Below, in pieces: positions 1,276 through 1,541 of a stretch of 4,361 nucleotides of DNA. The stretch is taken from NCBI RefSeq assembly GCF_003334335.1, contig NZ_QOWQ01000079.1; one strand, 5' to 3'. The first letter of the stretch is position 1. Each line of letters opens with the position of its first letter. The translations under genes and the position numbers were made by a program. The DNA comes from Escherichia coli. Its GTDB lineage: Bacteria > Pseudomonadota > Gammaproteobacteria > Enterobacterales > Enterobacteriaceae. A model generated the notes under the pieces. That model searched no databases. It worked only from the letters and a program-made list of their open reading frames with translations, and was not told the DNA's origin.

Positions 1276-1541
1276 GCTGAAAAAGAAAACATCAGATGGT
1301 TAGTCGGGTATCAGTTATCTGGTGAAATTTTTAAATACCTCACAATTCAGGAAGGTGATTATTGTTTTTCTGGTGGGGAATTTGTTAAAAATCACTCCGC
1401 ATGATGAATCCCCCTAAGCGGTGGGGCGACTGGCAAGGCTCCATTACGATGGTCACAATCCGCAGATTTAGTTTGCCAGGCTGAATCTACCGGGAGGCAC
1501 CCGGCATCATGCATAATGTGGAAAATTGGAAATGTATTCAG

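Follow-up and report, generated by a model that had tools for sequence, protein, structure and literature searches.

The covarying stem-loop of two tandem prophage modules in Escherichia coli is a helix of STnc100-family small RNAs

Two diverged modules stand in tandem in a 4,361-nucleotide (nt) stretch of Escherichia coli DNA (RefSeq assembly GCF_003334335.1, contig NZ_QOWQ01000079.1; the whole stretch is referred to below as the window), and each carries a potential stem-loop just upstream of a conserved box. An earlier reading, made from the sequence alone, had claimed that compensatory base changes preserve this stem, here called H3, in both modules, copy A and copy B, and that selection on the structure of a plus-strand RNA is the reason. 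What RNA does the helix belong to, and what part might it play there? The analysis shows that the window holds two diverged tandem genes for STnc100-type small RNAs (sRNAs), placed between phage tRNA genes and a sialate esterase gene, and that H3 is a helix of that RNA family.

Coordinates are given for the plus strand unless the minus strand is named. H3 of copy A pairs 1464-1471 (AGATTTAG) with 1481-1488 (CTGAATCT); it has 8 bp, one of them a U1469-G1483 wobble, and encloses a 9-nt loop at 1472-1480 (TTTGCCAGG). H3 of copy B, also of 8 bp, pairs 1879-1886 (GGGTTCAG) with 1897-1904 (CTGAACTC), with a G1880-U1903 wobble and a 10-nt loop at 1887-1896 (TGGCACCGGG). Direct reading of the sequence showed that the sequence-only reading had all of this right: coordinates, stem length, wobbles and the loops of 9 versus 10 nt. 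The two pairs that it had counted as changed on both strands, A-T to G-C each time, are pairs 1 and 3, which are A-U in copy A and G-C in copy B. Pair 2 (G-C versus G-U) and pair 6 (U-G versus C-G) are changed on one side, and pairs 4, 5, 7 and 8 are the same in both copies. H3 is present in the minimum-free-energy and centroid folds of both modules. The isolated hairpins of copies A and B have z-scores of -2.23 and -1.67 on the plus strand versus -0.55 and -0.41 on the minus strand, modest values for single sequences. The comparison of the two copies is, by itself, no proof of selection, because hybrid stems still pair: when G-U is tolerated, the copy A 5' strand forms 7 of 8 pairs with the copy B 3' strand, and the copy B 5' strand forms 8 of 8 with the copy A 3' strand.

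A covariance-model scan of Rfam 15 gave the family. Both modules matched RF02076 (STnc100) over its full length, copy A at 1369-1577 with 122.1 bits (E-value 2.1e-27) and copy B at 1773-1985 with 147.2 bits (E-value 7.7e-34); the curated gathering score of the family is 47 bits. Both modules are STnc100-family sRNA genes, in a family that includes EcOnc27/sRNA103, EcOnc06 and, more distantly, PasD1 and PasD2. The RF02076 consensus structure already includes H3, directly before the invariant hairpin CCGGG-AGGCA-CCCGG, here H4. All of the consensus helices are present in both copies, namely the closing helix (P1), the CCCC/GGGG hairpin (H1), the 8-bp helix before the CCGGGAGGCACCCGG hairpin, and the terminator. 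The few non-canonical positions in the cmscan alignments all fall outside those helices, and single-sequence folds and family covariation agree. The element that the sequence-only reading had treated without a family assignment is accordingly a member of RF02076, and its "box E2" is probably H4 of copy A. The reported helix itself is already known, as part of a curated family, and Infernal would annotate both copies automatically. What is added here to this known kind, namely a pseudoknot, tentative tertiary pairs and the exact 5' boundary, is incremental.

Homologous loci were gathered from species genomes and viral contigs by pattern search. A first strict scan of the species genomes yielded 8 loci, and looser patterns run on viral contigs supplied enough diversity. 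A covariance model, R1, was built from 11 sequences with nested helices only and used to search 96 sources. The search gave 173 matches and an alignment of 150 rows, 137 of them distinct, from prophages of Escherichia, Klebsiella, Leclercia, Pantoea and Enterobacter. The window's own cores scored 73.9 bits (copy A, 1397-1514) and 74.8 bits (copy B, 1801-1930). A structural alignment of homologues was the check that the sequence-only reading had proposed, and in it all eight H3 pairs covary among the 137 distinct sequences: both sides change at 8 of 8 pairs, with 98.0% of cells paired. P1 shows both-side changes at 7 of 8 pairs, and H4 is essentially invariant. The structure as a whole was 93.3% paired versus 81.1% in shuffles, with none of 500 shuffles as high, and the covariation score was 0.404 versus 0.163 in shuffles. 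When the 3' partners were slid by 1-3 columns, whole-structure pairing fell from 93% to 43-48%.

Two features of this alignment count against a simple reading of its totals. Many of the sequences are related, so the cell counts overstate the number of independent events, and the H3 alignment was fitted to a model that itself contains H3, which favours pairing. Because of that fit, a register search on raw sequences was added, in which 8 of 8 H3 pairs were found in 109 of 123 sequences versus 3.8% when the 3' strand was taken from a sequence with a different stem; the null of this search is free of the bias, as are the pseudoknot columns described below. In all, 52 distinct variants of the H3 stem were found. 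When 24 representatives were aligned with plain MAFFT, the register of H3 came out wrong, with 49.7% paired, because loop lengths and a bulge differ; the covariance-model alignment and the register-search null were used instead. One pair is G-U in 101 of the 137 aligned sequences and would be C/A if read on the other strand, which identifies the plus strand as the functional one. The plus-strand transcript that the sequence-only reading had proposed is borne out by this pair, by intrinsic terminators on the plus strand and by the detection of relatives as plus-strand RNAs in northern blots or RNA-seq. Selection on H3 as RNA secondary structure in a plus-strand transcript is supported. The claim that paired covariation reveals such selection holds across the 137-sequence family; the two copies, with their pairing hybrids, had been weaker evidence for it than was stated. 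A single full pattern match came from far outside the enterobacterial range of all the others, on an 888-bp Xanthomonas pisi contig, and may be contamination.

The loops of H3 differ in sequence and length between the copies, as the sequence-only reading had recorded; they are not free to vary, since each forms a pseudoknot with an upstream strand and covaries with it. Six nucleotides of the loop, the last of them separated by one base from the H3 3' strand, complement six nucleotides that start at the C of a conserved GCGAC just 3' of H1. In copy A, 1430-1437 (CUGGCAAG) pairs with loop positions 1472-1479 (UUUGCCAG), the final pair being a G1437-U1472 wobble. In copy B, 1834-1839 (CUGGUG) pairs with 1890-1895 (CACCGG) and includes a U1835-G1894 wobble. 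The loops of the two copies differ because each pairs with its own upstream strand. In the model alignment, where these columns lie outside the model, all 6 pairs show changes on both sides, with 90.8% of cells paired; the plain MAFFT alignment gives 96.7%. At least six contiguous complementary bases occur in 94.9% of the 137 sequences versus 25% for mismatched partners. There are 46 variants of the duplex, CCAGUC/GACUGG, CUAGAC/GUCUAG, CAGCUG/UAGCUG, AAGCCACAG/UUGUGGCUU and AUCAGCA/UGCUGAU among them. Copy A is unusual for the family both in H3 (AGAUUUAG/CUGAAUCU) and in its pseudoknot strands. The RF02076 consensus line holds no pseudoknot, and the word is absent from a 2026 preprint on the Pas sRNAs (Zhu, Shabalina and Storz). 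The pseudoknot is for this reason treated as not yet annotated, within the limits of the literature that could be searched.

Further long-range pairs may join the H1 loop, or the strand after H1, to the CGC that precedes H3. In copy A these would be G1418-C1463, C1419-G1462 and G1428-C1461, and the equivalents in copy B would be G1822-C1878, C1823-G1877 and G1832-C1876. Alignment columns 34 and 87 (G1428-C1461 in copy A) hold G-C in 118 sequences, A-U in 15 and U-A in 1; columns 25 and 88 (C1419-G1462) hold C-G in 133, U-A in 3 and U-G in 1. With few independent events behind them, these extra pairs are put forward tentatively. A set of 17 unpaired nucleotides is at least 97% conserved in the five genera, while the helices around them covary. 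They are AAUC after P1, GCGG in the H1 loop, GC before H3, A before H4, AGGCA in the H4 loop, and one more.

The copy A gene is placed at 1399-1573, from the first nucleotide of P1 to the end of the terminator U-tract, and its minimum-free-energy fold shows P1, H1, H3, H4 and the terminator; the copy B gene, by its RF02076 match, is at 1803-1981. P1 joins 1399-1406 (GCAUGAUG) to 1505-1512 (CAUCAUGC) in copy A, and 1803-1810 (GCAUGGUG) to 1921-1928 (CACCAUGU), with a G1803-U1928 wobble, in copy B. H1 of copy A pairs CCCC (1411-1414) with GGGG (1423-1426) and carries the near-invariant GCGG (1418-1421) in its loop. The H1 stem is almost invariant and covaries only in HK639-type copies (CCUUUC/GAAAGG) and in PasD (CCUCC/GGAGG). 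H4 has the same parts in both copies, CCGGG (1490-1494 and 1906-1910), loop AGGCA (1495-1499 and 1911-1915) and CCCGG (1500-1504 and 1916-1920); its stem and loop are invariant or nearly so across the 137 sequences. By terminator scan, the 3' linker of copy A spans 1513-1540, the terminator stem 1540-1567 and the U-tract ends at 1573; in copy B, linker 1929-1954 is followed by a terminator stem at 1955-1974 and then by UUCUUAU to 1981. In copy B, the P1 3' strand CACCAU (1921-1926) can also pair with AUGGUG (1931-1936), which replaces P1 in the minimum-free-energy fold; by eye, no equivalent was seen in copy A or in phage 933W.

A predicted promoter precedes each gene. That of copy A (1362-1391) has a -35 element TTGTTT (1362-1367), an extended -10 TG (1383-1384) and a -10 element TAAAAA (1386-1391); that of copy B (1767-1796) has TTGATT (1767-1772), TG (1788-1789) and TAAAAA (1791-1796). 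A consensus promoter scan did not call the copy A promoter, because the scan accepts only hexamers with T as the sixth base. E. coli-type homologues are preceded by this TTGnnn-N18-TGnTAAAAA layout too, and those of Klebsiella type by TTGACA-type promoters that lie equally far upstream. Transcription would start at G1399 in copy A and at G1803 in copy B. The RF02076 model starts about 30 nt upstream of these likely start sites (1369-1398 and 1773-1802 in the window), and its outer 3-bp helix is drawn on promoter DNA. By comparison with the mapped PasD1 5' end, this outer part of the model is probably not RNA.

Two other readings of the modules as genes were tried and rejected. Open reading frames (ORFs) of 35 codons on the plus strand (1509-1616 and 1925-2032) start at an AUG within the P1 3' strand, encode unrelated peptides and cross the terminators; an AUG at that position of P1 is absent in the other genera, and these ORFs are probably not genes. 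A tRNA-like element was not called either, ARAGORN finding in the window only the three upstream tRNA genes. In two of the homologous loci (L110 and L114), sequence like the 3' half of a tRNA occurs within a few bases 3' of the element (ending GGTTCGACTCCCCGGTGGCGGACCA in L110), also with no ARAGORN call.

The 5' domain varies in number and in what follows it. Other prophages hold 5-6 copies of it, mostly in tandem and about 120-260 nt apart (L147 9129-11997, L003 12894-14332 and L006 11233-12772); in these arrays the H3 and pseudoknot sequences differ from copy to copy, while the invariant loops are the same. In Leclercia-type prophages (L051 4051-4433, and similarly L009, L083 and L124) there is a domain copy with no terminator nearby; a 63-codon ORF (MEEGFYWIQHNG...) lies about 85 nt downstream of it, and then another domain copy. 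The distance from P1 to the terminator ranges from about 25 to 165 nt, the Klebsiella-type terminator being about 165 nt downstream. The class without a terminator is smaller than it first appeared, because the crude terminator detector, which used a 160-nt window, overlooked the Klebsiella-type terminator.

STnc100-type RNAs are known as EcOnc27/sRNA103 and EcOnc06, with PasD1 and PasD2 as relatives, and are Hfq-binding and northern-confirmed. EcOnc27, which follows stx2B in Sp5/933W, resembles the window copies in P1, H1, H3, H4, terminator, prophage position and, putatively, a convergent partner sRNA; the window differs in having two tandem copies, with no stx between the tRNA genes and the esterase gene. 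The northern probe used for EcOnc27 maps to the 3' linker in 933W. EcOnc06, the antisense partner of AgvB in Sakai prophage Sp17, and EcOnc05 likewise belong to convergent pairs between PR' and the lysis genes. The size of EcOnc06, about 177 nt, fits a start at P1, and its northern probe covers H3 and the loop of a family member. In H3, loop and 3' linker it differs in sequence from the window copies, and AgvB, its partner, is known to target GcvB.

PasD1 and PasD2 are prophage sRNAs of 172-173 nt from enteropathogenic E. coli (EPEC) strain E2348/69 (Pearl Mizrahi et al. 2021; Zhu, Shabalina and Storz 2026 preprint), and according to the 2026 preprint PasD shares common ancestry with STnc100. 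PasD1 is 173 nt long and depends on Hfq for its stability. Its 5' end in RNA-seq data (position 1060260 of E2348/69) is the first nucleotide of GCAUGGUG, i.e., of P1, 7 nt past TAAAAA. The 3' linker, immediately ahead of the terminator, is the site of the PasD seed (UGUGAG) and of the RIL-seq chimeras. Like copy B, PasD starts with the P1 strand just named, and it shares with the window copies P1, H1, an 8-bp H3, a pseudoknot between the loop and an upstream strand (AUGAUC/GAUCAU), a 3' seed and a terminator. It differs in scoring only 19 bits with R1, in a degenerate H4 (GCGGGAGGCGCC) and in an H1 of CCUCC/GGAGG.

We consider it probable that H3 is a structural helix in the 5' domain of an STnc100-family Hfq sRNA that regulates through a 3' seed. 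In this model each copy would be transcribed from a sigma-70 promoter of its own, of the extended -10 type, with the first P1 nucleotide as the start of the RNA. A 5' domain of about 115 nt would fold as a multi-helix junction of P1, the invariant H1, a variable H2, H3 and the invariant H4. The role of H3 would be architectural: with P1 it would enclose the junction, and it would present its loop, the six central nucleotides of which pair with the strand immediately 3' of H1 to give a pseudoknot that locks the junction. Such a lock would explain why stem, loop and upstream strand change together and the 17 unpaired nucleotides never do. The 3' part, a variable single-stranded linker and the intrinsic terminator, would be the portion that binds Hfq and pairs with targets, and the linkers at 1513-1540 and 1929-1954 are the candidate seed and Hfq-binding regions. 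The division of the RNA into a folded 5' domain and a variable 3' linker with terminator is drawn from the PasD1 5' end, the sizes of the relatives and the positions of seeds and probes. By analogy, both window copies would be expressed and would work as their relatives do, and the folded 5' domain would stabilise the RNA or protect its 5' end, or have a second function.

Several observations weigh against the sRNA model. EcOnc27 migrates on northern blots at about 235/247 nt, whereas roughly 171 nt would be expected for an RNA that runs from P1 to the first terminator; the longer RNA could be read-through to the AsxR terminator. Expression, size, a 5' end at P1, Hfq dependence and the 3' seed are known from the relatives, not from the window copies. 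What follows the domain in a few prophages is a small ORF instead of a terminator close by. Finally, invariant loops, covarying helices and a pseudoknot would be unusual for a mere Hfq-sRNA scaffold, which hints at a function of the 5' domain's own.

The last point leads to the strongest rival, in which the 5' domain is an autonomous module whose invariant loops and junctions bind a conserved protein of host or phage, or a ligand, perhaps as a decoy or sponge would, and the 3' parts are exchangeable payloads; without H3 and the pseudoknot the binding surface could then not form. P1, H3 and the pseudoknot vary freely around H1, H4 and the 17 conserved unpaired nucleotides in five genera, two further long-range pairs show some covariation, and the domain is found before a short linker and terminator, before the extension of about 165 nt in Klebsiella phages and before the 63-codon ORF of Leclercia-type prophages, all of which would suit such a module. 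Arrays of up to 5-6 copies would fit a dosage or titration role. The partner would be hypothetical, and PasD keeps P1, H1, H3, the pseudoknot and a degenerate H4, yet works as an Hfq sRNA with a 3' seed. The pattern of conservation is that of a specific tertiary fold, but whether such a fold serves binding or the stability of the RNA cannot be told from conservation alone. On balance we regard this explanation as possible but doubtful. The broader proposal drawn from it, that the 5' domain of about 115 nt common to STnc100 and PasD is a discrete pseudoknotted fold with its own partner (a conserved enterobacterial or phage protein, RNA polymerase or a small ligand), is joined by prophages to varied 3' payloads and is multiplied in arrays, is likewise offered as speculation with perhaps one chance in several of being right.

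Three cis-acting or DNA-level explanations are much less probable. The put RNAs of phages HK022 and HK639 are processive antiterminators that, like the element in the window, are structured, promoter-proximal, found in lambdoid phages and placed upstream of terminators, and H3 might be one arm of a similar polymerase-binding fold; transcription starts with the domain, and HK639, besides using a put-like RNA, carries one copy of the element. The two kinds of RNA have no sequence or structure similarity, however, and put RNAs lie in early operons, whereas all copies with gene context checked are in the late region, not after PL or PR. HK022 has no STnc100-like match in the Rfam scan and no R1 match with default filters; with filters off, R1 found in the right-hand 21.6 kb of HK639 (28000-49576) only the late-region copy, and nothing at the annotated putL-like RNA. 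The put RNA is about 70 nt long and is described as two stem-loops, with no mention of a pseudoknot in its paper, while the relatives PasD and EcOnc06 accumulate as discrete RNAs of 172-177 nt ending at their own terminators. Constitutive read-through into the lysis genes would also kill the lysogen, and antitermination is an improbable role for the domain. A riboswitch-like sensor, in which a ligand stabilises P1 and so controls the terminator and, hence, the esterase or lysis genes, would account for an aptamer-like layout of P1, multi-helix junction, pseudoknot and invariant junction nucleotides followed by a terminator, and the alternative pairing of the copy B P1 3' strand with 1931-1936 might serve as its switch. 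That alternative is specific to copy B, the linker between P1 and terminator varies in sequence and in length, a putative convergent sRNA gene and further terminators intervene between the element and the esterase gene, and the Rfam scan matched no riboswitch family, all of which makes a sensor very improbable. Least credible, to the point of being negligible, is that the inverted repeats act as DNA, as a protein-binding or recombination site, or are chance palindromes kept in recent duplicates. The pairing hybrids and modest z-scores of the two copies would allow it, but the frequent G-U pair would be a mismatch in duplex DNA or on the other strand, pairing is kept in the stem variants, and only an RNA fold can account for the covariation of the loop with a strand 35-55 nt upstream.

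In at least 8 Sakai prophages, the stretch from PR' to the lysis genes is known to contain Hfq-binding sRNAs in convergent pairs (PMC4104026, PMC7873438), a pair type in which the gene on the opposite strand is 51-60 nt long and has a conserved 3' hairpin (Tree et al. 2014). The window would hold two tandem pairs of this kind, each putative minus-strand gene having an AsxR-like 3' hairpin and U-tract. The partner of copy A is a short sRNA-like gene at 1578-1640 on the minus strand, which, when aligned with AsxR of 933W, is similar to the 3' part of that gene and has GCCCG...CGGGC and a U-tract at its end; a promoter-like site for it lies at 1674-1645. The partner of copy B, also short, sRNA-like and on the minus strand, is at 1985-2050 with a terminator at 2013-1992. 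Like the anti-sRNAs AsxR (RF02703) and AgvB (RF02702), these are putative convergent genes of about 60 nt that overlap the STnc100 terminator region and have a similar 3' hairpin and U-tract. Their 5' regions differ from those of AsxR and AgvB, so any targets would differ as well. Neither minus-strand partner matched the Rfam AsxR or AgvB model within an E-value limit of 1, and for the copy B partner Rfam gave nothing beyond a weak match to OmrA-B, below threshold.

The window is the late-region "moron" slot of a lambdoid prophage. It contains a DNA methylase gene (7-945), three tRNA genes (986-1235, ARAGORN), the sRNA genes and a SASA-family (sialate) esterase gene of 660 codons (2207-4189). 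Identical DNA in E. coli DETEC-S792 gives the wider order as RusA, DUF1133 protein, methylase, three tRNAs, sRNA genes, SASA esterase, holin and lysozyme, and there the 970-bp gap that holds the sRNA genes is without any annotation. In 933W and HK639, too, the element is placed between the Q/PR' region and the lysis genes. The 933W homologue lies between stx2B and the esterase gene, 75 nt past stx2B and convergent with AsxR, and the single copy in HK639 lies between Q and the holin gene. In Shiga toxin (Stx) phages, stx occupies the same slot as the two sRNA genes of the window. The exact two-copy arrangement was found in just 6 of 5,426 complete E. coli genomes. The first tRNA gene, at 986-1061, is Met (anticodon CAT) according to ARAGORN and tRNA-Ile (ileZ) according to RefSeq and the 933W record; it is presumably read as Ile after lysidine modification. 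Just past the esterase gene, 4195-4269 on the minus strand has a weak, sub-threshold match to Esr41 (23 bits versus a gathering score of 102, E-value 0.36), and 933W carries a similarly weak one.

As first put, the finding rediscovers a helix of a curated RNA family and alone changes little. The family structure is nevertheless richer than the Rfam drawing, with the pseudoknot, possibly two long-range pairs and the invariant loops, which makes the 5' domain a definite fold, testable by mutation. If the 5' domain does prove to be an autonomous module, then what is called an Hfq sRNA would be a two-part RNA whose better conserved half has a separate role. The 3' linkers of the two window copies differ and, if both are expressed, their targets are probably different.

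The family also bears on Shiga toxin phages, in which an STnc100 RNA directly follows stx. A 2025 machine-learning study (PMC12711010) linked two polymorphisms downstream of stx2B to haemolytic uraemic syndrome (HUS). Both fall on the predicted STnc100 promoter, as seen when 933W (L001 2984-3000, TTTGTTAAAAAAATTTC) is compared with the stx2c phage 2851 (L252, TTCGTTAAAAAAATTC). The T/C change turns the extended -10 TG into CG, and the T deletion shortens the spacer between the -10 element and the start site; both window copies keep an intact extended -10 TG. These positions suggest the hypothesis that the HUS-linked difference is one of promoter strength of an STnc100-type gene.

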